A program made the translations under genes and the position numbers. A stretch of DNA of 51,957 nt, from NCBI GenBank assembly GCA_937884085.1, contig CAKZYD010000408.1:1-51957 (forward strand), read 5' to 3'. Of this stretch, positions 17,824-51,106 are shown in pieces; the stretch's first letter is position 1; each line of letters begins with the position of its first letter. Source of the DNA: an uncultured Sphingomonadales bacterium (lineage in GTDB: Bacteria > Pseudomonadota > Alphaproteobacteria > Sphingomonadales > CAKZYD01). Under the pieces are notes generated by a model that worked only from the letters and a program-made list of their open reading frames with translations, was not told the origin of the DNA and searched no databases.

Positions 17824-18690
17824 CTAATTGCCGCCACCTTGCAGGTCAAAATACTCAAAAAACTCACTGTCAGGCGACAGCACCATGCTGGTGTCATCTT
17901 AGCGCAATGCTTTGCGATAGGCCTGCATAGAGCGATAAAACCCGAAGAATTCCTCATCGCGCTGGAAGGCGTCGGCAAAGATTTTAACCGCCTGTGCGTC
18001 GCCATCACCGCGAACTTTTTGAGAATTTTCTTCGGCTCTCGCGAGCATCACGGTACGTTGCTTATCAGCTTCAGCGCGAATACGAAGTTTCTCTTCTTCC
18101 CCTTCCGCGCGGATTTCACGCGCCTCTTGCTCGCGCTCCGTCTGCATCCGGCGGTAAATAGCGTCGGAGTTTGCCTTCGGCAGTTCGGCGCGCTTAATAC
18201 GCACATCGACCAGTTCCACGCCTAAGTCCCGCGCTGCGCGATTGGCGCCAGTGCGGATTTGCTCCATCAAAGAGCCACGTTCAGCAGACAAGAGGGTTGT
18301 AAAAGTTTGCTTACCGAGCGTTTCGCGCAGTTGCGAGCGGATTGGGGTCGACAAGAAGTCGCGGGCGCCGTTTTCGTTGAAAACACGCTGATAGAGCTTC
18401 AGCGCATCGGTAATTTGAAAGCGGGCAAACGCATCCACCACCAGACGCTTTTGGTCCGATGTCGTGACCTCTTCAGGCGGGACATCCAAATTAAGCACCC
18501 GGCTATCCAGCAGCACAACATTTTGCCAGGGCGCTTTGAACTTAAGGCCAGGCTCCACATGGGTGCGAACTGGATTACCAAATTGCAGAACAATGGCCTG
18601 CCGGGTTTCGGGAAGCGTGTAGACGCTCAAGGACGCTGCAAACAGCGCCAGACCCAGGACAATGAGAGAAATTATCGTTTTGACGTTCAT
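17824..18690 (-). pseudogene. hflC: Protease modulator HflC carrying an in-frame TAA (17899-17901)
   Basis: SPFH/band-7 sequence. The ORF 17899-18690 ends ...FYRSMQAYRKALR*. The same frame continues DDTSMVLSPDSEFFEYFDLQGGGN to a TAG at 17824-17826, which is the normal HflC C-terminus. Confidence 0.9.
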
Positions 18691-18711
18691 GATACTTAAC
18701 TTTCCTGGGCC

Positions 18712-19830
18712 TTAATTCCGTGACCGTTGCGCTGCGACTTCAGGCAGCGGCAGATAGGGCACCACGCCAGAGCCAGCAGACCCATCGATGATGATTTTGT
18801 TCATGTCTTGCATGATGTCTTCCATCGTTTCGAGATAGATGCGTTTGCGGGTCACGTCTTTCGCATCCTTGTACTGGTCATAGACTTGATTGAAGCGGTC
18901 GGCTTCACCGCGGGCTTTTGCCACGGTCGATTCTTTATAGGCTTCCGCCTCTTCGAGCATCTTGGTTGCTTCACCGCGTGCCCGTGGCACCACATCATTG
19001 GAATAGGCTTTGGCTTCGTTGATAGAGCGTTCTCTGTCAGCTTCAGCAGCCTGCACATCCCGAAAGGCATCAATCACGGCCTCAGGCGGCGTCGTTTGTT
19101 CTAGGGCAACCTCTTTGACCGAGATGCCAGCATCATATTGATCGAGCGAATCTTGAATAATCTGCTGCACTTCCACTTGGATTTTATCGCGTGCATCGGT
19201 CAAGGCGTCACGAATAGGGCGGCGGCCAATGACTTCGCGCATGGCGCTTTCGGCCACATCTTTTACCGTCTGCTCTTGCGGTTCTTGAATGTTGAAGAGG
19301 AATTTTTCGGCATTCCCAATCCGCCAGAAGACTGTGAAGGCCACATCGACGATGTTCTCATCGCCCGTCAGCATTAGGCTTTCATTGTCGTAGCGGCTGT
19401 AATCCGCGCTGCCATTCACATTGCTGCGGAAACCCACATCAATCCGGTTTTGCCGCTCAACATTGGGCGTTAGCGCCGTTTCGATCGGCGATGGCAGTTT
19501 CAAATGGAAGCCCGTGCCTTCGGTGCGCACATATTCCCCAAAACGTAAAATGACGCCTTGCTCGCCCGGTTTAACGGTGTACCAGCTGGTCAGGCCAATC
19601 CATATCAGCGCCAGCAGCGCCAAGATGAGCATGATGCCGCCGCCGCCAACACCGCCCGGAACCGCGCCCTTCAGCCGTTGCTGGCTTTTGCGGATGAGGT
19701 CATCCAAATCAGGCCCGCCAGCGCTGCCGCCGCCGCCACTGCCGCGTGGGCCGCTGCCCCAAGGGTTTTTTCCGCCACGGTTGCCGCCTGTATTCCAGGG
19801 GCCGCCATTGTTGTTGTTCTGCCAGGGCAT
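18712..19830 (-). CDS. hflK: Protease modulator HflK
   Basis: Gly-rich N-terminus, one TM helix and an SPFH domain. It lies immediately upstream of hflC. Confidence 0.95.
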   Translation of the reverse strand: MPWQNNNNGGPWNTGGNRGGKNPWGSGPRGSGGGGSAGGPDLDDLIRKSQQRLKGAVPGGVGGGGIMLILALLALIWIGLTSWYTVKPGEQGVILRFGEYVRTEGTGFHLKLPSPIETALTPNVERQNRIDVGFRSNVNGSADYSRYDNESLMLTGDENIVDVAFTVFWRIGNAEKFLFNIQEPQEQTVKDVAESAMREVIGRRPIRDALTDARDKIQVEVQQIIQDSLDQYDAGISVKEVALEQTTPPEAVIDAFRDVQAAEADRERSINEAKAYSNDVVPRARGEATKMLEEAEAYKESTVAKARGEADRFNQVYDQYKDAKDVTRKRIYLETMEDIMQDMNKIIIDGSAGSGVVPYLPLPEVAAQRSRN

Positions 19831-19954
19831 ACAGCTTCCTTTGCGTGAATCACTTTTATGTCAGAGTTGACAGACATGTTGTTTGCGGCACAGACACCGC
19901 TCTCGACGCTCTATATAAGAAGAGCGAAAGCGTTCGCAAAGGATTGATTGTCCC

Positions 19955-21046
19955 GTGTCAAAGCTTGCCCCCGATGATGTATTGACTGTGCTGAGCGATA
20001 TAACCCTGCCAGACGGCTCTACTTTAACGAAATCCCCGGTTTTCACCGGACTTGTGGTCAGGGACGACCATGTGGCTTTCGCTATCGATGCATCCTTGCA
20101 CGATGCCTATCAAAACAATCCCGGGCTACTCGCCCCCGTCCGCGCGGCTGCAGATGCCGCCCTCAAGCGAGACAAACGCGTTGGCCGCGCCACGGTTGTT
20201 TTAACCGGGGGGCCGTCGTCAAACCCAATACCGGCGCCAGCAGCCAAGCCAAACCCTGACCCAAAGCCAAAGCAAATTATTGCTGTCGGGTCTGGGAAAG
20301 GCGGCGTTGGCAAATCGACTGTGGCCGTTAATCTGGCAGTCGGGCTGGCGCGGCTCGGTAAATCCGTAGGCTTGCTAGATGCCGATGTTTATGGCCCTTC
20401 TGTACAGCACCTGCTTGGCCTAACAGGCGACCCGCGCGCCGATGGAGACAAAATCACGCCAATGGACGCCTTCGGCATCAAGGCCATGACCATGGGGCTT
20501 CTGGTTGACTAATCGACACCGATGATTTGGCGCGGACCAATGGTGGGCTCTGCCATTCTGCAGCTCCTCAATGACGTGGATTGGGGGCCACTTGACGTTT
20601 TGGTGGTGGATATGCCGCCTGGTACCGGCGATGCCCAGCTCACCCTAGCGCAGCGCACGCCTTTGGCAGGCGCCGTCATCGTCTCTACCCCGCAAGATTT
20701 GGCATTGATCGATGCTCGCAAAGCCATCGCCATGTTTGAGAAGGTGCAAGTGCCTATTCTAGGCCTTGTGGAAAATATGAGCGTGTTCATCTGCCCAAAA
20801 TGCGGCCATGAGAGCCATATCTTTTCCCACGGCGGGGCGGAAGACGCCGCCAAAAGCTTGGGCATTTCTTTCTTAGGCGGGCTGCCGCTGGATATAGACG
20901 TCCGCATGGCCAGCGATGATGGGAAGCCTATCGCTGCCAATTCAGGCGCGCCGCAAGCGGCCGCGTTTCTTAATTTGGCCAGCGCCGTCTTGGACAACCT
21001 CGCTGCCGATACTGCGCTACCGCCACCGCGTCTCGTGATGGATTAA
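19955..21046 (+). pseudogene. apbC: Fe-S cluster carrier ATPase ApbC/Mrp (NBP35 family) carrying an in-frame TAA (20510-20512)
   Basis: Track ORFs 19955-20512 (deviant Walker [12 protein letters not shown]) and 20522-21046 ([10 protein letters not shown]...[15 protein letters not shown]...CPKCGH) are in the same frame. They are separated only by TAA-TCG-ACA-CCG. GTG start at 19955. Confidence 0.9.
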
Positions 21047-21444: not shown

Positions 21445-21454
21445 AGACATTACC

Positions 21455-25734: not shown

Positions 25735-25825
25735 AAGTCCACCCGCTTTTAGGGTCTTATAGTGTCTGATACACCCGGATGACACAATATATAGTGCGCC
25801 AATATGTTGTGAAAAACGCGGCCTC

Positions 25826-25854
25826 TTCAAATGTTAAGCTTCTGAGCGTATATA
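25826..25854 (+). promoter_or_regulatory. Candidate sigma70-type promoter of ssrA
   Basis: TTCAAA-N17-TATATA would place a transcription start near 25861. That is about 80 nt before the encoded CCA end of the acceptor piece. Confidence 0.4.
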
Positions 25855-25860
25855 GGTCGT

Positions 25861-26270
25861 GTCGTTTCGGCGACTATGGCGATAAACGCGCCGTGCAATA
25901 GGCATATTGGACCCGGGGGCAGTACCCGGCGGCTCCACCATAAGTGTCCTGACCCAATAGGGTCTTTGTGACAGGGTATTTATGATGGGGCCGAACCAGG
26001 ATCGACAAGTGCTGAAAGACGGTTTTGCTTTCGCTCGGTATGATACCACCGTGATGGGTCATTTTTACAAATGCCAATGATAATGAGGCATTCGCTGTTG
26101 CAGCCTAACGATTAGCGCGAGCTAAGACTTAGAATAGCATTAAGCGCGGCCCAGGGGGCGCCGGGCAACAGAAGCCCCCTACCAACAAAGAAGCGGGCGC
26201 CGGGCAACAAAAGCCCTCCACCAATAAAAATGCGGGCGCCAGGCAACACCAGCCCCTTCACTGTGTGCTC
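25861..26270 (+). ncRNA. ssrA: Circularly permuted (two-piece) tmRNA gene; boundaries approximate
   Basis: Order along the gene:
- The acceptor piece ends ...CCGGG-GGCAGTA-CCCGG-CGGCTCC-ACCA at 25940.
- The coding piece starts GGGGCCGAACCAGGATCGAC at 25987.
- 5' GGGGCCG pairs with CGGCTCC, giving a G3:U70 pair.
- The tag ORF at 26073-26108 encodes ANDNEAFAVAA*. Confidence 0.8.
26154..26262 (+). repeat. Three tandem ~39-nt units inside or after the tmRNA coding piece
   Basis: Units start at 26154, 26193 and 26232 and read G(G/C)GGGCGCC(G/A)GGCAACA..AGCCC... Each can fold as GGGC...GCCC. Confidence 0.8.
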
Positions 26271-30970: not shown

Positions 30971-32212
30971 TCAGGCCTTCTTATCAAAGGTGATGTGCAA
31001 GGACTTAAGACCGCGCAGCATCATGTTCGGCATATGCGTCAGGCAGTTCTTGCCTTCCGCCAGCTTGATATTCTCCATCCGGTCGAAGAGGATATCGTAG
31101 GCTACGGCGAGTTCTTTGCGCGATAGCATCTGTCCTACACAGACGTGGATACCCTGGCCGAATGCCATCTGCTTGTTGGCGGTTTTACGGTCGGCAATAA
31201 AGGCACTAGGATTTTCGAACTCCTCAGGGTCACGGCTGCCGGCGGCATAGCGCAGATGGAGCATCGAGCCTTTGGGAATTTGCACGCCCTCAAGCTCCGT
31301 ATCGTCCAAGACCACGCGCCACATGCCTGAGGTGGCCGACTCCAAGCGGAGGATTTCCTCCACCATATTTGGAATGAGCTTCCTGTTATCCCGCGCTTTG
31401 GCTTGCTCAGCGGCATTCTGGATGAGCAGCAGGAGACCGCCCGCCATGGTATTGGTGGTGGTCTCATTGCCGGCCACCATCAGCTGTTGGCAAATGGAAA
31501 GGAGTTCTGCATCCGTGAGCGGCTGTTCGCCATCGATGCGCGCTTGAACAAGATCGGTAAGCAAATCATCTTGTGGATTGGTTTTGCGCGCTTCCAGCTT
31601 TTCAAACATATAGTGCTGGAAGTCGACGACGAGCTGGGCGCACTCAAGCTCACGCTCTTTGCCCATGGTTCCAGCAATGCGGTCCTCGAAGGCATCAGTC
31701 CAGCGCTTGAAGGTTTTCCATTCTGATTTATCGGCGCCCAATTGCTCGGCAATCATCATAACTGGCATGGGGATGGCCATGGACTGCATGAACTCGCATT
31801 CCCCATCATCAATGAACTGGTCAATCAGCGCATTGGCGGTTTGACGCATATAGTCTTCCATCGTGGCCACGCGCTTCATGCTGAAGGCGAGGTTGACCAG
31901 CTAGCGAAAACGGGTGTGGCTTGGCGGGTCGTTAGTCAGCAGCGTGTTGGCTTGAGGCCAGCCTTTTTCTAAGACGGACTGAATCTCAGGGTCTTTCGCG
32001 CTTTGGCCTTCCAGCATGATGCCAAAATTGTTGGAGAACACATCATAGCGTTTCAGGGCGCCGGCGATGATGTCGTATTTGGTGACAAGGAAAATATTTG
32101 TGCCGGGGATGTTGTAGACCGGCGCCTCCTCCATCGCGGCCTGATAGAAATCAAACGGGTCTTCAATCAGCTCTGGATCGAAGAAGTTGTATTCAGAAAG
32201 CGGTTTGTTCAT
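30971..32212 (-). pseudogene. Cytochrome P450 carrying an in-frame TAG (31901-31903)
   Basis: The N-terminal ORF 31901-32212 ends ...NDPPSHTRFR*. The same frame continues LVNLAFSMKRV... into ORF 30971-31879. That ORF has an intact I-helix AGNETT, the ExxR motif (EILRLES) and the haem loop FGQGIHVCVGQ. Confidence 0.9.
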
Positions 32213-32465
32213 GGCGCGCTCCTCTCACCTGACCTTGTGTGGTTTAGAATAGTCCTAGTTGACTGACATGAGGACTACTGAAACTAAGGGGCTGATAGGC
32301 AGGAGATGTCGTCGTCCCACGGCTTGACCGGGGGACCCATTTGGCCGCTGGGCTCCCACTTTCCGAACAAATCCACCCAGTCTTACCATGGATTGCCCGA
32401 TCCCCCGCCTCCGCGAGGGCAGGCAAGTCGGGCAATGACGATGGTTGAAACATTTGGAGGCTCAA

Positions 32466-32846
32466 TTAGGACGACTGCCCGCCTTGCATTTGGGCCATGA
32501 ACTGGCCCAGGTCGAAATAATCCCGCCAGGCTGAAATTTTCCCATCTTCCACTTCAAACGTCCCCATCACAGCGATTTCCAAGAGTTGTCCAGATGCAAA
32601 GGCGAAACAATCGACCCGCTCGGTTAGAACCACATTGCCGTTTTCGGCAATGTTGGTGATTTTCCAGTCGACACCTTTGATTTCACCCATGCTTTCGATA
32701 ACGCCGCGGACGCCATCGGGCCCAGTGACGGGTTGCATTGGGATGTTGTGATAGACGCAGTCCTGGGTGACCATCTCCGTCACACGGCCCCAGGCCATGC
32801 GGTTCCAGGCGTCGATGAACATTTCAACAGTTTCGCGGGGTGTCAT
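32466..32846 (-). CDS. Limonene-1,2-epoxide hydrolase family (SnoaL/NTF2-fold) protein
   Basis: 126 aa. The VYHNIP, LTERVD and WRDYFDL motifs match the Tyr/Asn and Asp-Arg-Asp catalytic positions of the LEH family. Confidence 0.8.
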   Translation of the reverse strand: MTPRETVEMFIDAWNRMAWGRVTEMVTQDCVYHNIPMQPVTGPDGVRGVIESMGEIKGVDWKITNIAENGNVVLTERVDCFAFASGQLLEIAVMGTFEVEDGKISAWRDYFDLGQFMAQMQGGQSS

Positions 32847-32861
32847 AAGGGCCTCCTCGAT

Positions 32862-33602
32862 TTACGGGTGACTGGTTGCGCCGCCGTCGATGAGGATGCC
32901 CTCACCCGTCAAAAAGCGCGCTTCTTCGCTGGCGAGAAAGCTAATTAGCGGCGTCACATCTTCAGGCTCGCCGATCCGGCCAATGGCGGCCCGGTCAATC
33001 CAATAGTCCTCGAAACCAGGCTCATTTGCAAATGTGGGCTTGGTGATCCCCGTCCGGATGGCGCCGGGCTGGATGTAATTGACGGTGATGCCATCAGGGC
33101 CAAGCTCATTGGCTAGGGACTTTGTGAGACCGGCCACAGCGTGTTTCGACGTTGAATACGCCGCCATACCTGCCGCTCCGAAATCGGACATGATAGACCC
33201 GACATTGATAATGCGCCCAGCGGCCGATTTCTTAAGTGCGGGAATGGCTGCGCGAGACAAGTTGAAACAGGCGTCGGCGTTGATGGTCATCGTCTTGCGC
33301 CAAAGATCGTCAGAATGGGTTTCAACTGGGGAGGGAACGCAGATGCCAGCGTTATTCACCAGGATGTCTATCTGCCCAAAGGCCTCCAGGGCCTTGCCAA
33401 CGATATTTGCAGCAGCGTCAGGTTCACTCACATCTTGGGCCAGTGTTAGGATGCCGTCTGCGGCTTCAAATGGCGATAAATCGACGGCCAAAACTTTGGC
33501 GCCATCCGCTGCAAATTGAGCGGCTGCCGCGTACCCAATGCCACTGGCGGCGCCCGTGACGATGGCCACTTTGCCAGTCATATCGCGTTTGGTTTCACTC
33601 AT
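32862..33602 (-). CDS. Short-chain dehydrogenase/reductase (classical SDR)
   Basis: TGAASGIG, NNAGI and YSTSK motifs. 246 aa. Confidence 0.9.
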   Translation of the reverse strand: MSETKRDMTGKVAIVTGAASGIGYAAAAQFAADGAKVLAVDLSPFEAADGILTLAQDVSEPDAAANIVGKALEAFGQIDILVNNAGICVPSPVETHSDDLWRKTMTINADACFNLSRAAIPALKKSAAGRIINVGSIMSDFGAAGMAAYSTSKHAVAGLTKSLANELGPDGITVNYIQPGAIRTGITKPTFANEPGFEDYWIDRAAIGRIGEPEDVTPLISFLASEEARFLTGEGILIDGGATSHP

Positions 33603-34402: not shown

Positions 34403-35439
34403 ACACTTTCCGGCGCGATTTGCAAAATCAGTTTGCCATTGTGGTCGCCGCTGAACAGCCGGTTGAAGCTGGTGAGGAAGTTCTCAATGCCTTCATCCAC
34501 ATGTTCTTGGAAAACCAGCTTATCTTCGGCAATCCACTGCGCCATCTGGCCGATGCCTTCGGGAAATTTGTCCAGAAAATCCCTGATCAGAAAGCCCTCC
34601 ATGCGAGCCGTTTTAGCGATCAGCTGCCACACATTGGTCGGGCCAGGCACCGGTTCTGTCGCATTGTACTGGCTAATCATGCCGCACAGTGGGAGGCGCG
34701 CATTGTCATTGATGTTAGCCAAGGCCGCAGCCAGAACGTCGCCCCCGACAGTGTCAAAATAGACATCGACCCCGTCTGGGCAGGCAGCTTTGATATCTGC
34801 AGCAAGGGTTGGAACATCTTTTCCGCGATAGTCCACTGCGGTGTCAAAGCCATAGACATCGGTAAGCCGCTTGCACTTCTCAGGACCGCCCGCAATACCC
34901 ACGGCACGGCAGCCTTGCAGCTTCGCAATTTGCCCAACCAGTGAGCCTACAGCACCTGCCGCACCGGAAACCAGGACGGTCTCACCGGCCTTAGGCTTGC
35001 CCACTTCGAGGAGGCCGAAATAGGCCGTTAGACCCACCGCGCCGAGAATGCTGAGATAGTTGGTGAGTGAGCGCACGAAGCTTGGGTCGACTTTGCTCGT
35101 AAACCCAACTGCATCGGCAACGGCATAGTGCTCCACTCCCGTGAGGGCGACCACGTAGTCGCCGGGCTGATAGTCTGGGTGGTTGGAGGCGGCGACTTGG
35201 CCCACCGTGGTGGCCCGAATAGACTCGCCCAATTCAATTGGCGGAAAATAGCTTTCTGCATCATCCATCCAGCCGCGCTGGGCTGGATCAAGCGAGCAAT
35301 AGATATTGCGGATTAAGATCTGCTCTCTGCCTGGCTCAGGGAGCGGCTCCGTCACCCATGCAAAGTCATCTGCCTTTGGAATACCGGCAGGGCGCTGCTT
35401 TAAAAGGACTCTGGTATTTTCCATCGGCTGTCTCCTCAA
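34399..35439 (-). CDS. NADP-dependent oxidoreductase, zinc-independent MDR (PTGR1/YncB-like alkenal/enone double-bond reductase)
   Basis: GETVLVSGAAGAVGSLVGQIAKLQGCRAVGIAG is the cofactor motif typical of the LTB4-dehydrogenase/ene-reductase subfamily. No Zn ligands are present. Confidence 0.85.
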   Translation of the reverse strand: MRRQPMENTRVLLKQRPAGIPKADDFAWVTEPLPEPGREQILIRNIYCSLDPAQRGWMDDAESYFPPIELGESIRATTVGQVAASNHPDYQPGDYVVALTGVEHYAVADAVGFTSKVDPSFVRSLTNYLSILGAVGLTAYFGLLEVGKPKAGETVLVSGAAGAVGSLVGQIAKLQGCRAVGIAGGPEKCKRLTDVYGFDTAVDYRGKDVPTLAADIKAACPDGVDVYFDTVGGDVLAAALANINDNARLPLCGMISQYNATEPVPGPTNVWQLIAKTARMEGFLIRDFLDKFPEGIGQMAQWIAEDKLVFQEHVDEGIENFLTSFNRLFSGDHNGKLILQIAPESV

Positions 35440-36221
35440 TCTACACCGCGCCCGCCGTCGACGACGAAGGCGGAGCCAGTGATGTAGCCGCTGGCCTCAC
35501 TGGCGAGGAACAAGGCGGCGTTTGCAATATCGATGGCTTCCCCAACCGTCTGCAGCGCATTGCCATCCATGGCAAAGGCTTTGACCTCCGGAGAGTCGCC
35601 ATATTCCTTAGTAATCATCTCCGTCCAGATGACGCCGGGATTGATCGAATTGACCCGGACCGGCGGGTCATAGGTCGCGCCTTCGCTGGCAGCCACCTTA
35701 GCAAGCTGCGTCACAGCCGCTTTGGAGGCGCAGTAGGCCGTGCAATCATCCAGCCCAATGAGCCCGGCAAGCGATGACATCACCATGATGCTGCCAGCTG
35801 TTTTCATCTTCTTCATGTGCGCGAGCGTGTATTTAACGCCTAGGAAAGTGGCGTCCACATTCACCTTCCAAAGCCAATTGAAATCCTCAACACTGGTCTC
35901 AGTCAGCGGCTTTGAGAAGAAAGCACCAGCGTTGTGAACGGCAATATCCAAAACGCCAGTCTTGTTCTCAATAAAGGCGAATAGCTCCGCCCAATTCTCT
36001 TCGCTGGTGATATCCTGCTGGAAGAAAAAGCCTTTGCCGCCCGCGCTTTCAATGCGCTCAACGGTCTTCGCGCCCTCGTCTTCATTGCGGCCTGTGGCAA
36101 TCACCACCGCACCTTCCTCAGCAAACAAGCAAGCGATTTCTCGGCCAATCCCGGAGGTTGCGCCCGTGACGAGTGCGATGCGGCCTTCAAGGGTCATTGG
36201 ATTGCTCATATATCGCTCCAT
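35436..36221 (-). CDS. Short-chain dehydrogenase/reductase
   Basis: TGATSGIG, HNAG and YCASK motifs. 261 aa. Confidence 0.9.
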   Translation of the reverse strand: MERYMSNPMTLEGRIALVTGATSGIGREIACLFAEEGAVVIATGRNEDEGAKTVERIESAGGKGFFFQQDITSEENWAELFAFIENKTGVLDIAVHNAGAFFSKPLTETSVEDFNWLWKVNVDATFLGVKYTLAHMKKMKTAGSIMVMSSLAGLIGLDDCTAYCASKAAVTQLAKVAASEGATYDPPVRVNSINPGVIWTEMITKEYGDSPEVKAFAMDGNALQTVGEAIDIANAALFLASEASGYITGSAFVVDGGRGVD

Positions 36222-36967
36222 CCGCCATCGACGGGCACAGTATAGCCGGTCATGAATTTCGACCGCTCAGAGGCCAGAAAGGCTGCCGCTTCAGCAATAT
36301 CGTTTTTCTCGCCATAGCGTTTAAGCGGTATCAACTGCAGCATTCGATGGTCGCGCTCTTCCCAGGGGGTCGGGTCAACGCCTTCTGTCATGGGGGTTCG
36401 GATTGGGCCAGGCGCGATGGCATTGACGCGAATGAAATCGCCTTTCCGCCCCATCTCAACTGCCAGCGCCTTCGTCAAATTTCCAAGGGCGGCTTTAGAC
36501 GGGCCATAGGCCGTATAAATGGGAAATGTTTTCTTCACGGCCACAGACGTGATGTTGATGATGGAGGCTTGGGCCGGCTGCCCGCCCGCCGCCGCGCGAA
36601 CTCTTTCAATGAACGCTTTGGTGCCAGCAAAAGGCCCCAGCAGATTGACCGCGCAGCTTTTTCTAAACTGCTCCAGGGACATGTCTGGAATAGTCGTCAT
36701 GTCGGCAATGCCGGCATTATTCACCAGGATATCGCAAATACCCTCCTGAAAGGCAGCGCCAAATACAGCGTCCCAGTCTTGCGTTTTCGTCACATCATGA
36801 TGCAAGGCCTCGAAGGCGCCGCCCGCCAGCGCCTTTGTCTCGGCCTGTCCGTCTTCATTGACATCTGTGCCGATGACCGTGGCACCATAGGCCGCCAGGC
36901 GCACACTGATGGATTGGCCAAGGCCCGAGCCAGCGCCAGTGACGATAGCTTTCTTTCCTTCTAGCAA
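36206..36967 (-). CDS. Short-chain dehydrogenase/reductase
   Basis: TGAGSGLG, NNAGI and YGPSK motifs. 253 aa. It overlaps the downstream SDR by 16 nt. Confidence 0.9.
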   Translation of the reverse strand: MLEGKKAIVTGAGSGLGQSISVRLAAYGATVIGTDVNEDGQAETKALAGGAFEALHHDVTKTQDWDAVFGAAFQEGICDILVNNAGIADMTTIPDMSLEQFRKSCAVNLLGPFAGTKAFIERVRAAAGGQPAQASIINITSVAVKKTFPIYTAYGPSKAALGNLTKALAVEMGRKGDFIRVNAIAPGPIRTPMTEGVDPTPWEERDHRMLQLIPLKRYGEKNDIAEAAAFLASERSKFMTGYTVPVDGGWSDI

Positions 36968-36988
36968 ATCAACTGCTCCCCAAATGCT

Positions 36989-37303
36989 TTATTCATCCAA
37001 GACAATGAAAACGTCATCGCCGTCGACTGCCACTTTGTAGGTGTTTATATTTGTAACAGCGGGCGACGCGACCAATGCACCAGTTTTGAGATCGAACCGC
37101 GCGCCATGATGTGGGCACATCAAAGTCTCGCCGCGCACTCTTGCGCCCTTTAAAGATTTAAAAGCGTGTGGACACACAGCCTCAAAGGCATAGACATCAT
37201 CGCCGACCCGGCAAAGCGCGACAGACAGCGCGCCTTCTTCACAAATGACAGCCCGTTTTTGCGGAAGGGCAGCAAATTGTGAGACTTTGATCCGATCTAC
37301 CAA
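36989..37303 (-). CDS. Stand-alone Rieske [2Fe-2S] ferredoxin
   Basis: CPH...(17)...CPHHG Rieske ligand motif. The start is uncertain. TTG at 37303 gives about 104 aa. The track ORF begins at a TTG (37393) inside a 17-bp perfect palindrome. Confidence 0.75.
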   Translation of the reverse strand: MVDRIKVSQFAALPQKRAVICEEGALSVALCRVGDDVYAFEAVCPHAFKSLKGARVRGETLMCPHHGARFDLKTGALVASPAVTNINTYKVAVDGDDVFIVLDE

Positions 37304-37356
37304 CTGCCGCCCCAGATGTAAGAACGAATCAAAACTTGAGAATAAGGCTGCGAAAG

Positions 37357-37396
37357 ACTGCAAAATATCAGCATTTCTGATTTTGCAGTGCAAAAT
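37357..37396. promoter_or_regulatory. Operator-like array of three TGCAAAAT half-sites
   Basis: ACTGCAAAAT-N13-ATTTTGCAGT has 10-bp perfect arms. It overlaps ATTTTGCA-g-TGCAAAAT, a 17-bp perfect palindrome at 37380-37396. Confidence 0.45.
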
Positions 37397-37597
37397 AAAT
37401 TCTTTCGGATGATCACAAACAGGAAGCCTTTTCTATAAGACCTTAGGATGCAAAAAACGCACGTGTTCAACGGGAAATGAAAACAAGATCTTTTATTGCA
37501 GGTCTCAACGTCCTGTCTTCTCTCACATCGTGGATATGTTGCGCCGCACAAAACATACATGCGGGTTTGTTTTTATCTGAAAGTCATGTTAGCCACA

Positions 37598-37613
37598 CTG
37601 GTGAATTCACTAG
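37598..37613. promoter_or_regulatory. Palindrome CTGGTGAATTCACTAG upstream of the luxR-type gene
   Basis: The core GTGAATTCAC (37601-37610) is a perfect 10-bp palindrome, and 14 of 16 positions are symmetric. It lies about 140 bp upstream of the ATG at 37749. Confidence 0.35.
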
Positions 37614-37748
37614 CCAATATTTTCTAGAGGGCAACGAGGCCCAGCGTAACCTGGTTGGCTGAATTCTTCTGAGCGGTGTGACGCCACCCACTTTGAGGAC
37701 TTAAAAACGCGACACACCTCCGGTCGACACAATCCGATGGGGAGATAA

Positions 37749-38516
37749 ATGGGAATCGTTGCCGATCATTTTGAATTTGTCATCAACAGCGTGGATGACA
37801 TCCTACCAGCAGCCATAAAAATGCGGGATATGGCCGAAGCCATTGGCGGCTACCGCGCCGCCGCCTGCGACAACATCGCGTCTAAAATCCCAATGAAAGA
37901 TCACGACGGCAATGTTTTAGCCGAGACGATCTTCGGTTGGACTGAAGAATCAGAGCAATGGTGGAAAAATTCCCGCCTTGCCCTTACCAGCCCAGTCCCG
38001 AGAGCTTGCCGCTATGAGAATGAGCCCTTTTGGTGCAACATAGACGGCTTTTATACGCGCCAGCCCAATCCATTTTTGGACGAGATTGATCTGGCCGATT
38101 TTGAAAAACGCTCCGGCATTCGTTCTGCCATCATTGTGCCAGTGCATTTACCATTAGGGCAGATTGGCGCCGTCTCTCTGGCACCGCGCGACAACCGCGA
38201 AGACCTTGCCGACGACTTCCAGATGCACGCCAATGACCTCCAAGTCTTGGCGCACCGTTTCATCACCGGCTATGTCAAAGTCACCCGCGGACGTTCACTG
38301 GTACCATCCGACTGCCAGCTGACCAAACGCGAAGTCGAATGCCTGCGCTGGGCAGCGGTCGGCAAAACCGACAGAGAGATCTCCAAGATCCTCTCCCGCA
38401 GCCACGCCACCATCCGCTTCCACATCAAATATGCAGGCGAAAAGCTCAACACAGTGAACCGCTCGCAAACCATTTTTAAAGCAGCGCAGCTGGGATACCT
38501 TGGCACTGCTGCCTAG
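37749..38516 (+). CDS. LuxR-family transcriptional regulator (autoinducer-binding-like N-domain plus GerE HTH), no cognate luxI in window
   Basis: C-terminal HTH LTKREVECLRWAAVGKTDREISKILSRSHATIRFHI. The N-domain has IIVPVHLPLGQIGAVSLA and PFW motifs typical of the LuxR ligand-binding fold. Confidence 0.85.
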   Translation: MGIVADHFEFVINSVDDILPAAIKMRDMAEAIGGYRAAACDNIASKIPMKDHDGNVLAETIFGWTEESEQWWKNSRLALTSPVPRACRYENEPFWCNIDGFYTRQPNPFLDEIDLADFEKRSGIRSAIIVPVHLPLGQIGAVSLAPRDNREDLADDFQMHANDLQVLAHRFITGYVKVTRGRSLVPSDCQLTKREVECLRWAAVGKTDREISKILSRSHATIRFHIKYAGEKLNTVNRSQTIFKAAQLGYLGTAA

Positions 38517-38539
38517 GGCTTAGCCCAACGAAAAACAGA

Positions 38540-38571
38540 CCCCGCCTAGGAAGTTCTGGGCGGGGTTTTTT
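38540..38571 (+). terminator. Rho-independent terminator after the luxR-type gene
   Basis: CCCCGCC-loop-GGCGGGG followed by TTTTTT. Confidence 0.8.
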
Positions 38572-38624
38572 AATGCGAAAACCCTTTGGCAGCAGTGACA
38601 CCTTGCACTGAGAGGGAAGCCAAC

Positions 38625-38648
38625 AAAAAAGGGCCGCCAAAGCGACCC
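38625..38648 (-). terminator. Rho-independent terminator after the TonB-dependent receptor gene
   Basis: The minus strand reads GGGUCGC-UUUG-GCGGCCC followed by UUUUUU, 29 nt past the TAA stop. Confidence 0.75.
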
Positions 38649-38676
38649 TCTTCTGATTGTGTTGGTACTATACCGC

Positions 38677-41600
38677 TTAGAAAATGTTTGCGGTGACGCC
38701 GAGGAAGAACTGGCGCCCGATGGGGCTGACTGGGTAAGCCTGCTCTGTAATATACGGCTTGCGGTCAGCTAGGTTATTTACGCCCCCGTAAACGGTGAAC
38801 ATATCATTTACCCGGTAGCTGGCATTGATGTCATGAATGTGGGCTGGCCCAGCAAATGCAGATGGGCCGAACTGCTCAAGACCAACCTCAATCTCAACAT
38901 CACGCAGGCCAGTCTGACCAATGTAGGTCATGCCATAACCAACCAACAGATCGCCATACTCGGCAGTGATGTTAACACCGCCTGACCATTGTGGGCGCTG
39001 AATTTCGCCCAACTCTGGGTCAAAAATGGATGGATCTTGCGGATCAAAGAACTGGTCCAATTCACTTACGTATGACCAGAAGGTTGAAACATTGAAGTCG
39101 ATTTCGCTTACAGCAAACTGATAATTCGCTGTTACATCGACACCTGAGGTCTTCAGGGCACCGAAGTTCAACTGAGACTGACGCAAGAAGTTGAACGTCA
39201 GGAACAAGGATGAGCTCGGATCTCTATTGCGCGAAAACTGCGTACAGAACTGATTGTCCAGGCTTTCACTATCGTAGCAGTTTTCAACAATATCGCGATC
39301 ACTAATCGCCGCAATAGCGTTTTGGATTTCGATATTGAAGTAATCCACTGTGAGGGTGAACCCGTTAAACCACGTCGGTTGGAAGACAGCACCAATCGTA
39401 TAGGTCTTGGCTGTTTCTTCGGTCAGATCAGGATTACCCCCTTCAACACCGACAAAACGACCTGTTGCAGGGTTGATAAAGCCTGCTGGAATTCCATCCG
39501 CTTGGCAGTTCGCTGCACGGCGAGCGCCGGCCGCGGCATCAGAGGCAGTTAGAGTATCAATTGACGCTTGCTCACACGGGTCAAACCTGTCCGTTTCGAA
39601 CGTTGTGCCAACCTCCGGTGAGAAAAGCTCAAAGATGTTGGGGGCACGTACGGCTTTTGCGTAGCTCGCTCTGAATCGCAAGGATTCGATCGGCTGCCAG
39701 TTAAGGTTTGCTGACCAGGTAAACGCACCGCCGATTGTTGAATAATCCGAATACCTTACCGCACCACCGATAGAAAGTTCTTCAGCGAATGCAGCGCCGG
39801 ATATTAAGGGAATACTCACTTCGGCAAAGACATCCCATACGTCGTAGCTGCCTGTCACGTTGTCTTGTAAGACAGTACCATCGATGGGAATGCTATTGGT
39901 GACCCACCCATCAATGGGCACGTCACGAATGAGGCTCCCAGCGGGGACCACTAAGTCTGCCCCACCCTCGCCAGCGCCAGGAATAATACCGTCCTGCGGC
40001 AGGATGCCGAGCGTTAACGGATCGAAGTCGCTCTGGCTACTCTCGTCGCGATATTCTAAGCCGAAAGCGAAGCCAATAGCGCCAGCTGGTAGCTCAAAAT
40101 AGTCGCCAGTATCACCGGTGAGCAGCGCGCGGAATGTGAGTTGTTCCAGCTCAAATGTATTGAACGTGTCAGTAAGAATGAAGTTACGCGCCGCGTCAGA
40201 CACACCGTTCGGACCAGCCAAAATATTGAGTGGTTGACACTGACCATCACCAGGGGTGAATGTGTAATAACCAAAGTTATACTGCGGGAACGGTGAAGTG
40301 GGCGAAACAGTGCTCGGATCGAGGTCAGAACGACAGACTGGCTCGCCAGTTTCTGGATCGGAGACAACATCAAGAGCGGCAAAATAGCGATCACCCAGAG
40401 GATCATTTGCCTGCGTCCTAACCTGCTCAAATTGACCGTAGTTACCAGACAGCTCTAAATCCCAACCGTTATCAAACTCCCAATCGAGACCTGCAATAAA
40501 ACGGATGGTCTCACGTTCGTTTTTCTCATCGCGAGGCGCCATATCGATATGGTCTTTGAAGACCGTCAACCCATCAGCACCGGCGGCGCCAAACTCCTCT
40601 GGAATAAAGGGATTATCTGGCGCTATCGTAAGTTCATCGTGGAAGATACTATAAGGTGACCCAAAAAGAACGCGGTTACGAACATATTTACCCTCTGCAA
40701 AGCCTGTGATGCTGTCGGTAAAGTCATATTTTACGTTCACTTGAACGCCGTATTCCGTTCGATCTGGTATCAGGTACTCATCATCGAAGAACGTAGAAAT
40801 ACCGTCACCGCCAGATTGCTCAACGAGGCTCTGAGTTACTTCTCCATCTTGATATGGCCTCACTGACCCATCGTCGTTGACAACCCAACACCCAACGGGG
40901 CTAACAACGGTTTGGTCGCAGTCGTTGATACCGTTTCCATCTAAGTCCAAGTCGGCCCCAGAATTCAAACCAATGACGCCGCGTTCGGAACTGATTGCAA
41001 ATGTTACATCTGGGCGGAAAGCAAGCTGCGGCGCAGATGCAGCGCGGTCAATTAGTGCCCGCTCACTGGCTGTTAGGGAAGGCGCAGCGGTCCCGAATTC
41101 ATCTTCGAAGGCTGCATTGTAGGCAGCAACACTTGTTGGTATCGTATCGCCGCGTGCGAAAAGCTGTGCAAAGCCCGGAGTACTGCTCGCGGATATCTCA
41201 TTGGCTTGAAACACGAAATCAGGATTGGAAATAGACCGGCTAATGCCGCCGCTACGTGAAAAGTCTCGATCGCGTCCACGGATGTCGTTTTGACGGCCAT
41301 AATAAGCATTAACAAAGATGTTGCCTCGGTCGCCCGCAAAGTTTGTACCGTACAGGACATTAATGCGATATTCTTCGCCGTCGCCTTGGTCAGAAATGCT
41401 CCCTCGGACGTCCATTTCCAGACCTTCATACTCATCCTTCAACAGAAAGTTCACAACACCGGTAACGGCATCGGCGCCATATAGAGAAGAGGCCCCGCCT
41501 GTCAGCACTTCTACGTTTTCAATAAGCCCTTGTGGGATCGACCCAATATCAACCGACTGCTGGCTATCGAGACCGCTGACATGGCGTCTGCCATCGACCA

Positions 41601-41988
41601 AAACGAGCGTTCTATCAACACCAAGACCGCGTAGTTGAAGCAAACTTTGACCGACTGACCCAGCATTGCCGGCAATAATGTCGCTGGACGCATCGATCGA
41701 CGCCTGTGCCCCGATAGAGCTAGATAGCGCAGGCAGTTCACGCAGAACGGCAGTCACATCGCCTGTTCCAGAAAGCTTAAGGTCCTCCCCACCGATTGAT
41801 TGAACCGGAACCGGCGCGACCGCATTAGGGTCCCGCGCAATCAGCGAGCCGGTCACAAAAATCTCTTCAGTACTTGCGGCAGCGGCGTCGGTTTGGTCTT
41901 GCGCCGCTGCTGGCAAGCTTGCCATGGCAGTGGCGGCTGCGCCGCTCATTAATAATGCACGAGTCATGGATGCGTGGCGTGCCCGCAT
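38677..41988 (-). CDS. TonB-dependent outer-membrane receptor (large, 1103 aa)
   Basis: Signal peptide, a TonB-box-like EEIFVTGS, a plug domain (VEVLTGGASSLYGADAVTGVVNF) and a long beta-barrel ending ...LGVTANIF with a terminal Phe. Confidence 0.9.
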   Translation of the reverse strand: MRARHASMTRALLMSGAAATAMASLPAAAQDQTDAAAASTEEIFVTGSLIARDPNAVAPVPVQSIGGEDLKLSGTGDVTAVLRELPALSSSIGAQASIDASSDIIAGNAGSVGQSLLQLRGLGVDRTLVLVDGRRHVSGLDSQQSVDIGSIPQGLIENVEVLTGGASSLYGADAVTGVVNFLLKDEYEGLEMDVRGSISDQGDGEEYRINVLYGTNFAGDRGNIFVNAYYGRQNDIRGRDRDFSRSGGISRSISNPDFVFQANEISASSTPGFAQLFARGDTIPTSVAAYNAAFEDEFGTAAPSLTASERALIDRAASAPQLAFRPDVTFAISSERGVIGLNSGADLDLDGNGINDCDQTVVSPVGCWVVNDDGSVRPYQDGEVTQSLVEQSGGDGISTFFDDEYLIPDRTEYGVQVNVKYDFTDSITGFAEGKYVRNRVLFGSPYSIFHDELTIAPDNPFIPEEFGAAGADGLTVFKDHIDMAPRDEKNERETIRFIAGLDWEFDNGWDLELSGNYGQFEQVRTQANDPLGDRYFAALDVVSDPETGEPVCRSDLDPSTVSPTSPFPQYNFGYYTFTPGDGQCQPLNILAGPNGVSDAARNFILTDTFNTFELEQLTFRALLTGDTGDYFELPAGAIGFAFGLEYRDESSQSDFDPLTLGILPQDGIIPGAGEGGADLVVPAGSLIRDVPIDGWVTNSIPIDGTVLQDNVTGSYDVWDVFAEVSIPLISGAAFAEELSIGGAVRYSDYSTIGGAFTWSANLNWQPIESLRFRASYAKAVRAPNIFELFSPEVGTTFETDRFDPCEQASIDTLTASDAAAGARRAANCQADGIPAGFINPATGRFVGVEGGNPDLTEETAKTYTIGAVFQPTWFNGFTLTVDYFNIEIQNAIAAISDRDIVENCYDSESLDNQFCTQFSRNRDPSSSLFLTFNFLRQSQLNFGALKTSGVDVTANYQFAVSEIDFNVSTFWSYVSELDQFFDPQDPSIFDPELGEIQRPQWSGGVNITAEYGDLLVGYGMTYIGQTGLRDVEIEVGLEQFGPSAFAGPAHIHDINASYRVNDMFTVYGGVNNLADRKPYITEQAYPVSPIGRQFFLGVTANIF

Positions 41989-48079: not shown

Positions 48080-48424
48080 CTACTTCTTCTCAGACTTTTT
48101 ATCGTCAGCCGGCTCGGTTTTGGTCCGCACGTCTGAAATGGTGGACTTGACGGCTTTCACCCGCACGCCCTCGGCCAAATCAATTTCCACATCATCGTCT
48201 GCGACTTTGGCCACTTTGCCAATCAAGCCGCCGGCCGTGACCACAACGTCGCCGCGGCGGATGCCACCGACCATATTCTGGTGGTCCTTGAGGCGCTTTT
48301 GCTGCGGCCGGATAAGCAGGAAGTAAAAGATGACGAACAGCAGCACAATCATGGTAATTGGGCTTGCCAAAATGGCCTGCACGCCGGTTGGCGCCGTTTG
48401 TGCGTAAGCCACATCAATAAACAT
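48080..48424 (-). CDS. yajC: Preprotein translocase subunit YajC
   Basis: The internal ATG at 48424 is preceded by AAGGA. MFIDVAYAQT...LLIRPQQKRLKDHQNMV..IRRGDVVVTAGGLIG. The track ORF is extended to 48523. Confidence 0.9.
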   Translation of the reverse strand: MFIDVAYAQTAPTGVQAILASPITMIVLLFVIFYFLLIRPQQKRLKDHQNMVGGIRRGDVVVTAGGLIGKVAKVADDDVEIDLAEGVRVKAVKSTISDVRTKTEPADDKKSEKK

Positions 48425-48521
48425 GCGAGTTCCTTTTCTAGCCTTCCTGGTCCTGCAGCGATAGACAGGTGGCACACACCACAGCCCAACACCGCCCACC
48501 CCCTGACCTATGAGGTATGCC

Positions 48522-49382: not shown

Positions 49383-50392
49383 CGGCCAGCGGCAGCCATT
49401 TGTGTGCGGCCTAGATAGCGCATGGGGTCAATCGCCCTGCTGTCGCGGCGCAGCTCAAAATGCAGCTGCGGGCTTTGCACCAAACCGGTGTTGCCAACGC
49501 GCGCGATTTGCTGGCCTTGCACAACCCAATCCCCAGGCTGCACGGCATAGCTAGATAGGTGCGCATAGGCGCTGACCATACCGTTGGAATGACGCAGGAG
49601 GATGAGATTTCCAAATGCCCGCAGCTTTTTCCCTGCGTAAATGACTTCACCCGCTGCCGCGGCATAGACCGGCGCGCCAGAGCGAGCCGCGATATTGACG
49701 CCATCATTGCGCAAACCGTCCGCTTTCACGCCATAACCCGACACCACTTTGCCAGTGACCGGCCAAATGAAGGTCGCTGACCCCGCTTTAGGTGACAACG
49801 GCGCTTTGACCACAGCCTTCGTCGCTGACGCACCTGGCAACCGCAGTGTCTGTCCAGGCTTTAAGACGTAGGGCTTTTTCAGGCTGTTGATGCGAATGAG
49901 CTCCGCTGGAACAACACCATGACGGCGCGCGATTGCGTATACGCCGTCGCCTTTGCGCACCCGGTAGATGGGTTTTGAAGGCGCGGAGACCTTAACAGCT
50001 TTGACAGGAGCAGGCTTGGCCACCTGTCGCGGCGCTGGTGCGCCGGAGAAAACAAGCGTTTGGCCGCGTGCCAAGTGATAAGGCGCTTTCAAACCATTCA
50101 GCTGAATCAGCGTTTGGGCGGACACGCCATAGCGTCTAGCCAGGCCATAGACCGTATCGCCCGCTTGAACGGTGTAAACCGCTGCTGAGCGCTTTGGCTG
50201 GGCTGGTTTTGGCGTCCAGGTCACCCGCTGAACGGCCGGTTTCGCTTTTGGCGTTGGTACTGGGATGGGACTGTTCGTGATTTGCCAGCGTGGGCTTACG
50301 GCGCGGTAGTCATAGGGTTGCGCACAGGCGACTGCCAGGAACGACCCGAGGATGAGCACAAGGCTCCGCGATATGAAAACCGAAGCAAGCAT
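49379..50392 (-). CDS. LysM-repeat / M23 family murein endopeptidase (NlpD-like)
   Basis: Signal/lipobox-like N-terminus (VACAQ), three LysM-like repeats (YTVQAGDTVYGLARRYGV..., YRVRKGDGVYAIARRHGV...) and an M23 core (HSNGMVSAYAHL, GNTG...PQLHFE). Confidence 0.9.
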   Translation of the reverse strand: MLASVFISRSLVLILGSFLAVACAQPYDYRAVSPRWQITNSPIPVPTPKAKPAVQRVTWTPKPAQPKRSAAVYTVQAGDTVYGLARRYGVSAQTLIQLNGLKAPYHLARGQTLVFSGAPAPRQVAKPAPVKAVKVSAPSKPIYRVRKGDGVYAIARRHGVVPAELIRINSLKKPYVLKPGQTLRLPGASATKAVVKAPLSPKAGSATFIWPVTGKVVSGYGVKADGLRNDGVNIAARSGAPVYAAAAGEVIYAGKKLRAFGNLILLRHSNGMVSAYAHLSSYAVQPGDWVVQGQQIARVGNTGLVQSPQLHFELRRDSRAIDPMRYLGRTQMAAAGR

Positions 50393-50464
50393 ACGGATAA
50401 AATAAAGTCGCGCGAATCGGCTGTCTAGCCGTCCAATCGAGATTCGCCTTTTGGACTCAAGGCT

Positions 50465-51106
50465 TTAGGCCGATGGAGCGGGACCTTCGTTAACCATGGG
50501 AACGAATTTTGCCGGCGTGACCGTCAGGCGCTTCATTTGGCCCTCGACCTTTGAGAGGCGCACCACATCCTGCGGGCCGTCTTCCGGTCCAATGGGAACT
50601 ACCATATGTCCGCCTTCAGCCTATTGTTCCCACAACTTTTGTGGCAGCTCAGCTGCAGCGGCAGGCACCATGATGCGATTAATCGGCGCTTGTTCCGGCC
50701 AACCTTCCCAGCCATTGCTGAGACGGCAGACTATGTTGCGCAAACGCAACGCTTCAAAACGTTTTTCAGCTGGGCTCAGAAGGTTCTTGAAACGTTCTAC
50801 GCTAAACACGCGGCGCGCGAGGCGAGACAGGATGGCGCATTGATAGCCAGACCCGGTTCCTATCTCCAAGACTTTATCGGTTTTGCTGACCTCCAGCGCC
50901 TGTGTCATCAACCCAACCATAAGCGGCTGGCTAATGGTTTGACCGCTCGCGATGGGCAGCGCCAGATTATCCCACGCATAGTCCGCCATCTCTTCGTCAA
51001 CAAAAGCATCCCTGGGAATGTCAGCCATAACGTTCAAAACAGCATCATTGGTCACGCCGCCGCTGCGCAGGCTTTCGAGAAGCTCTGTTTTGGCCGGGTC
51101 AGCCAT
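50465..51106 (-). pseudogene. pcm: Protein-L-isoaspartate O-methyltransferase carrying an in-frame TAG (50621-50623)
   Basis: SAM motif VLEIGTGSGYQ. The ORF ends ...ELPQKLWEQ*. The same frame continues AEGGHMVVPIGPEDGPQDVVRLSKVEGQMKRLTVTPAKFVPMV to a TAA at 50465. The likely start at ATG 51106 overlaps the surE stop. Confidence 0.9.

Follow-up and report, generated by a model that had tools for sequence, protein, structure and literature searches.

The four in-frame stop codons that interrupt hflC, apbC/mrp, a cytochrome P450 gene and pcm in a 51,957-bp contig are most likely artefacts of low-coverage assembly and sequencing, the visible part of a background of random base-call errors, and would reflect neither recoding, nor suppression, nor gene decay. 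Among the assemblies compared, only this one carries the stops, and the private substitutions among which they occur look unselected and are clustered and rich in transversions. From this pattern we infer that read error at low depth produced the stops.

The window (one complete contig of 51,957 bp, from a metagenome-assembled genome [MAG] of an uncultured alphaproteobacterium) contains about 50 protein genes and one tmRNA, where an earlier note on this DNA had counted about 55 genes, and its coding density is as expected for a normal genome. Comparisons drew on sister assemblies from the same population, which are 99.6 to 99.9% identical to the window, and on a further group at 97%; GCA_039027515.1, GCA_039191525.1, GCA_038745905.1 and GCA_050042825.1 are sister MAGs. 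The closest contig, NODE_376 of ERZ4903314 (k-mer coverage of 3.4x according to the contig name), differs from the window at 38 positions across the 35.8 kb compared. The survey of private substitutions begins after base 4755, and in bases 1 to 4755, a segment with no relative for comparison, every ORF is intact; private substitutions are termed well covered when at least two other assemblies cover the site. Beyond these assemblies, no GTDB species genome contained the exact 40-mer across the hflC stop, an HflK search of the same genomes returned other species only (at most 85% amino-acid identity), JGI metagenomes yielded no close relative (best, 50% identity), and a literature search on the sample and assembly accessions found no paper. 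Truncated products are present in the public protein collection (HflC of 263 aa, ApbC of 185 and 167 aa, and P450 of 103 and 302 aa), so the stops are part of the deposited record. The idea that they had been planted or edited into the sequence was ruled out because these products are publicly deposited from the 51,957-bp contig.

The description of the interruptions in the earlier note holds: each of the four genes has one in-frame TAA or TAG (Table 1), none has a frameshift (alignments to relatives contain zero indels in all four genes), and homology runs on past the stops both in Pfam models and in alignments to distant species. The Pfam matches cross the stops as single stretches (ParA/NUBPL, residues 106 to 345; PCMT, residues 6 to 206), and more distant species align continuously across the hflC and apbC stops. 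At all four sites, every sister assembly covering the position has a sense codon: AAA in hflC (L001, L009, L010 and L011), CAA in apbC (L001, L009 and L010, with Gln also in the related species L014 and L015, whose HflK proteins are 85% and 76% identical), AAG in the P450 gene (L002, L003 and L032), and TTG in pcm (L004, L006, L007 and L008). Members of the 97% group likewise have sense codons at the stop sites. In two of the four assemblies covering the hflC site, the contig ends at 17770 or 17783, ~120 to 130 bp from the stop, and the L005 scaffold has a 10-N gap exactly at the pcm stop base. No sequence context, methylation motif or other, is common to all four sites. Both Lys-to-stop sites share the context CGC-AAR to CGC-TAR, an observation that we count against reading the stops as errors.

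Table 1. Interrupted reading frames, their internal stops, and patches of private substitutions in the window
Feature	Position	Strand	Details
hflC reading frame	17824..18690	-	Band_7; spans 24 codons beyond internal stop; relatives 288 aa, intact
hflC stop TAA, K264*	17899..17901	-	Codon 264/288; private + strand T>A at 17901; isolated singleton
apbC/mrp reading frame	19955..21046	+	ParA/NUBPL, 322.9 bits; relatives 363 aa, intact
apbC/mrp stop TAA, Q186*	20510..20512	+	Codon 186/363; private C>T at 20510; isolated singleton
Cytochrome P450 reading frame	30971..32212	-	Relatives 413 aa, intact
P450 stop TAG, K104*	31901..31903	-	Codon 104/413; private + strand T>A at 31903
pcm reading frame	50465..51157	-	True stop 50465-50467; relatives 213 aa, intact, start at ATG 51107-51109
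pcm stop TAG, L179*	50621..50623	-	Codon 179 from longest ATG; private + strand A>T at 50622
Patch in pcm	50622..50683	unspecified	Five private transversions (A>T, A>T, G>T, T>G, A>T): F159I, T165P, M174K, L179*, one synonymous
Patch in P450 gene	31182..31236		Four private changes: N344T, N336S, K331E, N326S; L002, L003 and L032 agree against window
Patch in P450 gene	31670..31686		Two private G>T changes: one synonymous, A176E
Patch in zinc alcohol dehydrogenase gene	34730..34793		Eight private transversions, six missense
Patch in degP	16593..16621		Five private transversions, three missense
Patch in LysM/M23 peptidase gene	50254..50258		Two private A>T changes

The contig has 40 private substitutions, the four stops among them. 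The 33 that are well covered, found in 40.6 kb (a private density of ~0.08%), comprise 11 synonymous, 18 missense and 4 nonsense changes, are spread over codon positions 1, 2 and 3 as 7, 14 and 12, and include 27 transversions, with A>T, A>C and G>T classes mixed and packed in patches of 30 to 100 bp. Clustering is pronounced: 37 of the 40 have a neighbor within 60 bp, whereas 5,000 random trials gave 3.8 on average and never more than 15. Only three private substitutions are isolated, and two of these are the hflC and apbC stops. No indels relative to other assemblies occur in 47 kb of alignment. Nor are the interrupted genes otherwise pristine, as had been claimed: the P450 gene has five more private missense changes and pcm has three, the latter all within 62 bp of its stop (Table 1). 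The 62-bp pcm patch has the stop at its end, and at each of its sites the relatives with coverage (four for the stop, five for the remaining four sites) share a base that differs from that of the window; it ends precisely at the scaffold gap in L005.

Two of the P450 patches have features of their own. The stop sits at the edge of a 44-bp patch with five differences (31903-31946), of which the other four are synonymous third positions, some also polymorphic in L032; these four look natural, and we count them against the error reading. In the patch at 31182-31236, each change falls on a coding-strand A. A diversity-generating retroelement was considered for this patch and rejected, there being no template repeat and no second copy of any patch in the window; the Pfam labels of syntenic genes include no reverse-transcriptase family.

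Natural variation in the same population looks entirely different. In a control assembly (GCA_039027515.1), 29 of 39 private substitutions are synonymous, 29 of 36 coding substitutions fall at third positions, and 29 of 39 are transitions. Between the window and L001 there are 129 synonymous versus ~23 true amino-acid differences (what is left of 28 nonsynonymous codon differences once two stops and the HAD codons that precede the actual start of that gene are taken out), and within hflK the natural differences are 27 synonymous and 0 nonsynonymous; natural differences are ~85% synonymous. The private substitutions of the window look unselected, opposite to this control. A second noisy MAG, GCA_050042825.1, shows the same signature as the window, with 78 private substitutions in 31.8 kb, and has in-frame stops of its own (ilvC Q27, CAA>TAA; M23 peptidase K56, AAG>TAG).

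How these stops could arise can be sketched as follows. A MAG contig assembled at low read depth would in places rest on just one or two reads, often low-quality read ends or reads derived from a minor strain, and raw base-call errors would be kept in the consensus, yielding the ~0.08% of private substitutions, mostly in patches of 5 to 100 bp. Because such errors ignore the reading frame, ~4% of them would create a stop codon. A reader working with no reference would notice the stops only, the ~20 accompanying missense errors staying invisible, and the organism's own hflC, apbC, P450 and pcm genes would be intact. A small residue of doubt attaches to the hflC and apbC stops, which are isolated singletons.

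The number of stops accords broadly with such a process. The substitution spectrum predicts 3.8% nonsense changes, so that 1.25 stops are expected in the window and 4 are observed (P[≥4] = 0.034, uncorrected for the choice of this window for its stops), a weak excess; when both noisy MAGs are pooled, there are 6 stops among 105 private coding changes, with ~4 expected. The chance that two of three singletons are stops is roughly 0.01 if singletons are random, and such coincidences are inflated by the selection of the window for stops; the excess and the two singleton stops both count against the error reading. The stop density, which the earlier note held to be far above expectation for a free-living bacterium, is ordinary for a low-coverage MAG.

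That note had offered three explanations, which fare differently. Substitution-type errors are supported, the changes being private, clustered, rich in transversions and blind to codon position, with sense codons in the sister assemblies; a mutator or decaying lineage is disfavored by the patches and by the purifying pattern of natural differences, and a suppressor tRNA has no support in the 52 kb scanned.

Among the alternatives, the one that survives best, albeit unlikely, is that the stops are real and very recent mutations, as yet unselected, carried by a minor strain or single cells (e.g., a mutator lineage or damaged environmental DNA), and captured by single-read assembly. Brand-new mutations would also be expected to look private and unselected, and some of the changes in the P450 patch are natural variants between strains, implying that the assembler followed minor haplotypes in places. 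However, a private density of ~0.08%, set against a sister contig only 38 bases off in 35.8 kb, far exceeds the unselected load of any bacterial lineage. Known mutators produce a single substitution class or indels (transitions in mutS/L, G>T in mutY, A>C in mutT), unlike the mixture of A>T, A>C and G>T in 30- to 100-bp patches seen here. The absence of indels and the abutment of the pcm patch on the scaffold gap of another assembly also argue against recent mutation.

A second alternative is that the stops are real and tolerated, either through an ochre or amber suppressor tRNA (e.g., an anticodon mutant of tRNA-Lys or tRNA-Gln) or through programmed readthrough. Two of the stops replace Lys and one replaces Gln, the residues that the classical ochre suppressors of Escherichia coli insert (supG/supL and supB/supE); the stops are TAA and TAG only, and two of them are isolated changes. 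We regard this alternative as very improbable. The 52-kb window contains no tRNA genes, only the tmRNA, and hence no CUA or UUA anticodon, and with 32 of the 49 genes scored at their true stop ending in TAA or TAG, a suppressor would be costly. In any case, the codons from which a single base change leads to a stop are mostly those for Lys, Gln, Glu, Leu, Ser and Tyr. As reported earlier, none of the four stops is TGA, but this absence carries no information, because TGA makes up only 13.5% of the new stops expected under the window's spectrum, and zero TGA arises by chance with P = 0.56. Suppression also leaves the patches and the ~20 private missense transversions unexplained. If stops were neutral, one would expect more synonymous than nonsense changes among the isolated ones, yet zero isolated synonymous changes were seen. 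Finally, the other noisy MAG of this population has its stops elsewhere along with the same noise signature, and the stop alleles are not common to related genomes, contigs 99.6 to 99.9% identical being without them. In its narrower form, in which a strain that tolerates TAA and TAG via a Lys- or Gln-inserting ochre suppressor encoded elsewhere truly carries the hflC and apbC stop alleles, and perhaps all four, the idea has a correspondingly slim chance; if true, it would describe a natural free-living alphaproteobacterium with genome-wide nonsense suppression.

Also highly doubtful is the proposal that the four genes are true pseudogenes in a lineage undergoing genome decay, such as a host-associated population. 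Four interrupted conserved genes per 52 kb does match the density in a decaying genome, but the great majority of natural differences in these genes are synonymous (27 versus 0 in hflK), frameshifts, deletions and IS elements are all absent, coding density is normal, and all four genes are intact in sister assemblies that are 99.6 to 99.9% identical.

Reassignment of TAA and TAG to sense codons in this organism has practically no probability: the four stops are all that speaks for it, TAA and TAG terminators are positioned at the ends of homologues, and at the four sites relatives up to 99.9% identical have plain sense codons. The use of TAA and TAG as terminators in the window refutes it. Among the 49 of 50 gene models scored at the true stop (the pcm model, which ended short of its true stop at 50465-50467, was left out), 17 end in TGA, 17 in TAA and 15 in TAG, bearing out both the earlier rejection of a global reassignment and the ordinary terminators cited at the time (TAG in pstB; TAA in phoU, ilvB and miaA).

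The stops are most likely not a real biological feature and hold little for biology, and base-call error at low depth remains the preferred reading. When conserved genes of a metagenome contig show several clean in-frame stops, this should raise concern over base-level quality and is not evidence of recoding. Even without reads, error can be told apart from biology by comparison with sister assemblies, the diagnostic question being whether private substitutions are even across codon positions, rich in transversions and clustered. For annotation, the four genes are best regarded as intact genes that contain suspected sequence errors, and the substitution error of the MAG is best taken as about 0.1%.

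Among known systems, nonsense suppression in E. coli (supB/supE and supG/supL) resembles the present case in having in-frame TAA or TAG at Lys and Gln codons of otherwise functional genes; here, in contrast, the stops are private to one assembly and lie amid unselected noise, TAA and TAG terminate normally, and the 52-kb window holds no suppressor tRNA. The parts of Schirmer et al. 2016 (PMC4787001) concerned with error profiles describe Illumina errors as mainly substitutions, at ~0.0008 to 0.0015 per base and rising toward read ends, with wrong G calls and G read as T favored. The window is similar in its substitutions without indels, its ~0.08% (the low end of those raw rates), its clustering as expected from read ends, and its many T>G and G>T changes; it differs in that A>T/T>A are as common as A>C/T>G, a class that those parts of the paper do not single out. 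A further parallel is the report by Cooley and Wright 2024 in BMC Genomics (PMC11017572) that counts of internal-stop pseudogenes differ among near-identical assemblies and track coverage, assembler and platform. There, as here, near-identical assemblies disagree on which genes have internal stops, and clean substitution stops in conserved genes go together with an overall drop in identity to the true sequence and, in our case presumably, with low coverage; their data come mainly from isolate genomes, whereas ours come from a MAG contig of presumably low coverage in which strain mixtures add patches of natural variants.

Four genes of the contig, hflC, apbC/mrp, a cytochrome P450 gene, and pcm, are each interrupted by a single in-frame TAA or TAG, found in the window at the positions that the earlier note had reported; as a sequence observation, the four stops are confirmed. 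That family-typical sequence resumes in frame also holds: Pfam confirms all four families, and the ParA/NUBPL and PCMT models each form one continuous stretch over their stop. The hflC and apbC stops lie in uninterrupted alignment with more distant species as well, and there are no indels in the four genes relative to any relative, in agreement with the claim that no frameshift is involved. The truncated products (HflC of 263 aa, ApbC of 185 and 167 aa, P450 of 103 and 302 aa) were recovered by exact look-up in the public protein collection and belong to one contig of exactly 51,957 bp deposited in NCBI and ENA, so the window is an entire contig of a metagenome-assembled genome (MAG) and the stops are part of the deposited record.

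Sister contigs of the same population were found by looking up intact window proteins. NODE_376 of ERZ4903314 (47.2 kb; label coverage, 3.45) is 99.87 to 99.97% identical to the window over the fetched stretch (window 4756–43602), differs from it at 38 bases in 35.8 kb, and, from its record coordinates, should cover window 4756–51957. GCA_050042825.1, ERZ23487739, and GCA_039027515.1 share 99.6 to 99.7% identity with the window, and a group at 97% includes GCA_039191525.1, GCA_038745905.1, and SRR22824305. All of these align ungapped except for one scaffold gap; a 97%-group contig fetched later for the P450 region (L032) aligned with six gaps. At each of the four sites, every assembly covering the site has a sense codon, and each stop is a one-base change seen in the window contig only. 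An HflK search of GTDB, with one genome per species, did not find a same-species genome (best match, 85% amino-acid identity); at least four MAGs of the window's species are in NCBI, and the GTDB species representative may lack the hflK region.

Coordinates of in-frame stops, patches of private substitutions, and other features (window positions)
Feature	Position	Strand	Gene or region	Detail	Codon in relatives
Stop TAA	17899–17901	-	hflC	codon 264 of 288	AAA (Lys)
Stop TAA	20510–20512	+	apbC/mrp	codon 186 of 363	CAA (Gln)
Stop TAG	31901–31903	-	P450	codon 104 of 413	AAG (Lys)
Stop TAG	50621–50623	-	pcm	codon 179 counted from longest ATG	TTG (Leu)
Patch	16593–16621		degP	5 changes	
Patch	31182–31236	-	P450	4 changes	
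Patch	31670–31686		P450	2 changes	
Patch	31903–31946		P450	5 changes	
Patch	34730–34793		zinc alcohol dehydrogenase	8 changes	
Patch	37013–37112		intergenic	6 changes, all transitions	
Patch	50254–50258		M23 peptidase	2 changes	
Patch	50622–50683		pcm	5 changes	
Stop in GCA_050042825.1 (contig L013)	equivalent to 11396–11398		ilvC	Q27, CAA>TAA	
Stop in GCA_050042825.1 (contig L004)	equivalent to 50192–50194		M23 peptidase	K56, AAG>TAG	
tmRNA	25822–26199	+		two-piece (permuted)	
Gene cluster	30971–41988		P450 to TonB-dependent receptor		

Over the 47.2 kb covered by relatives, 40 substitutions are private to the window (i.e., differ from all other assemblies covering the site), 33 of which remain when coverage by two or more further assemblies is required. 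This stricter set (0.08% of 40.6 kb) comprises 11 synonymous, 18 missense, and 4 nonsense changes, spread over codon positions 1/2/3 as 7/14/12, and 27 of the 33 are transversions (9 A>T/T>A, 9 A>C/T>G, 7 G>T/C>A, and 2 C>G/G>C). In the control, GCA_039027515.1, 29 of 39 private substitutions are synonymous, 29 are transitions, and 29 of 36 coding changes fall at third positions, a pattern typical of sequence diverging naturally under selection. The divergence between the window and L001, a 97%-group relative, also looks natural: 129 codons differ synonymously, and about 23 differ by a real amino-acid change (28 scored as nonsynonymous, from which the two stops and the HAD codons upstream of the real HAD start are subtracted); hflK alone has 27 synonymous and no nonsynonymous differences. 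The lineage is therefore under strong purifying selection, which the window's private changes disregard.

These changes are also strongly clustered: 37 of the 40 have a neighbor within 60 bp (random placement: mean 3.8, maximum 15, in 5,000 trials), and the clustered ones form eight patches. The patch in pcm has the stop as its last base and yields F159I, T165P, and M174K as well, and all relatives covering these sites, the 97% group included, are united against the window. Exactly at this stop base, the ERZ23487739 scaffold (L005, 1342–1351) has a 10-N contig join with a 5-base duplicated overlap (GGCTG), indicating that coverage of that spot was thin beyond the window's own assembly. In the P450 gene, the stop lies at one edge of its patch, and the four changes that accompany it are all synonymous and at third codon positions, some being polymorphic also in the 97% relative; this patch looks like a minor-strain haplotype, to which the stop is an additional private change. 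The same gene carries five further private missense changes (A176E, N326S, K331E, N336S, and N344T), the last four of which make up patch 31182–31236 and all strike a coding-strand adenine in AAY/AAG codons. The likeness to retroelement-type adenine-directed mutagenesis is superficial only, there being neither a template repeat nor a reverse transcriptase in the window. The stops in hflC and apbC are private changes that stand alone; two other assemblies' contigs end at 17770 (GCA_039027515.1) and 17783 (a Logan contig, SRR22824308), at the DUF2065/hflC junction some 120 to 130 bp from the hflC stop.

Two patches have features of their own. The intergenic one, called against NODE_376 and covered by one relative, lies within 100 bp between an SDR gene and the LuxR-type regulator and looks natural, as a recombined or minor-strain patch. 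The degP patch is overlapped by a weak inverted self-match (16586–16637; 71% over ~52 bp); inverted repeats have been reported to provoke Illumina errors of the sequence-specific kind.

The excess of stops is mild, in a window picked for its stops. Given the spectrum seen in the window, 3.8% of random coding substitutions would create a stop (TGA accounting for only 13.5% of new stops), such that 36 private coding changes predict 1.25 stops against 4 observed (P[≥4] = 0.034). Pooled with GCA_050042825.1, there are 6 stops in 105 private coding changes, with ~4 expected. As slight oddities, stops make up two of the three isolated private changes, and the two changes from Lys to stop have the context CGC-AAR in common.

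GCA_050042825.1 is itself noisy: its 78 private substitutions in 31.8 kb (45 missense, 25 synonymous, 2 nonsense, and 6 intergenic; codon positions 20/24/28; 51 of 78 transversions) include two stops of its own, as a result of which gene callers missed ilvC and shortened the peptidase. In-frame stops thus recur in this population's noisy assemblies, at other sites, tracking private noise. A run of X>A changes occurs at the end of one of its contigs.

Genuine new mutations, or a mutator lineage, are an unlikely source of the stops: the rate would be too high for a window that differs from NODE_376 at only 38 bases in 35.8 kb, the spectrum spans several classes of substitution instead of one, and the changes are patchy and free of indels. 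Genome decay into true pseudogenes is very improbable, with natural differences strongly purifying and all four genes intact in the sister assemblies. Equally hard to credit is a suppressor tRNA encoded outside the window: it would leave the missense patches unexplained, and it predicts that isolated synonymous changes outnumber isolated stops, whereas no isolated synonymous change was seen. Within the 52-kb window, a search for tRNA genes, suppressors included, returned none, only an alphaproteobacterial tmRNA (ARAGORN; Rfam alpha_tmRNA, 252 bits; tag peptide ANDNEAFAVAA), whose type places the contig in Alphaproteobacteria. Reassignment of TAA/TAG, rightly dismissed in the earlier note, is refuted by ordinary terminator usage (TGA 17, TAA 17, and TAG 15 in the 49 of 50 gene models for which the true stop was scored; that of pcm had ended short of its real stop at 50465–50467).

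Two further aspects of the region concern its structure. Assemblies break repeatedly at the window's end (51957), which lies 82 bp upstream of surE: contigs L004 (GCA_050042825.1) and L005 end directly at the same base, as does NODE_376 by record coordinates, while three 97%-group assemblies continue beyond it, two (L006 and L008) reaching serS and tatC. The break may mark a repeat or a junction that varies between strains. The cluster at 30971–41988 (P450, SnoaL-like, SDR, ThuA, zinc ADH, SDR, and SDR genes, then a LuxR-family regulator and a 1,103-aa TonB-dependent receptor) looks like a catabolic island; identity to the 97% relative drops there to 95.5% (6 gaps) and 89.6%, making it more variable than the rest of the window.

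Substitution-type sequence error, one of the options in the earlier note, is favored by private changes that are unselected, clustered, and transversion-rich and by the sense codons in the sisters. Raw substitution errors kept in a low-depth assembly probably explain the stops, and we infer low depth together with read error as the cause. If one or two reads bridge a thin spot, their errors would be carried into the consensus and appear there as a patch, and ~4% of the retained errors would become stop codons. As a biological feature, the stops are most likely not real but an artifact of a known kind; the slim possibility that something real is involved hangs on the two isolated stops, in hflC and apbC. 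Among the error figures given by Schirmer et al. (PMC4787001) are Illumina substitution rates of 0.0008 to 0.0015 per base, with errors that climb toward the ends of reads and that include wrong incorporation of G and misreading of G as T; the window's private density falls at the low end of that range. Cooley and Wright (PMC11017572) found that internal-stop “pseudogenes” vary between near-identical assemblies and that their counts depend on coverage, assembler, and platform, serving as a proxy for assembly accuracy, and the window's stops would be exactly the kind of artifact that they describe.
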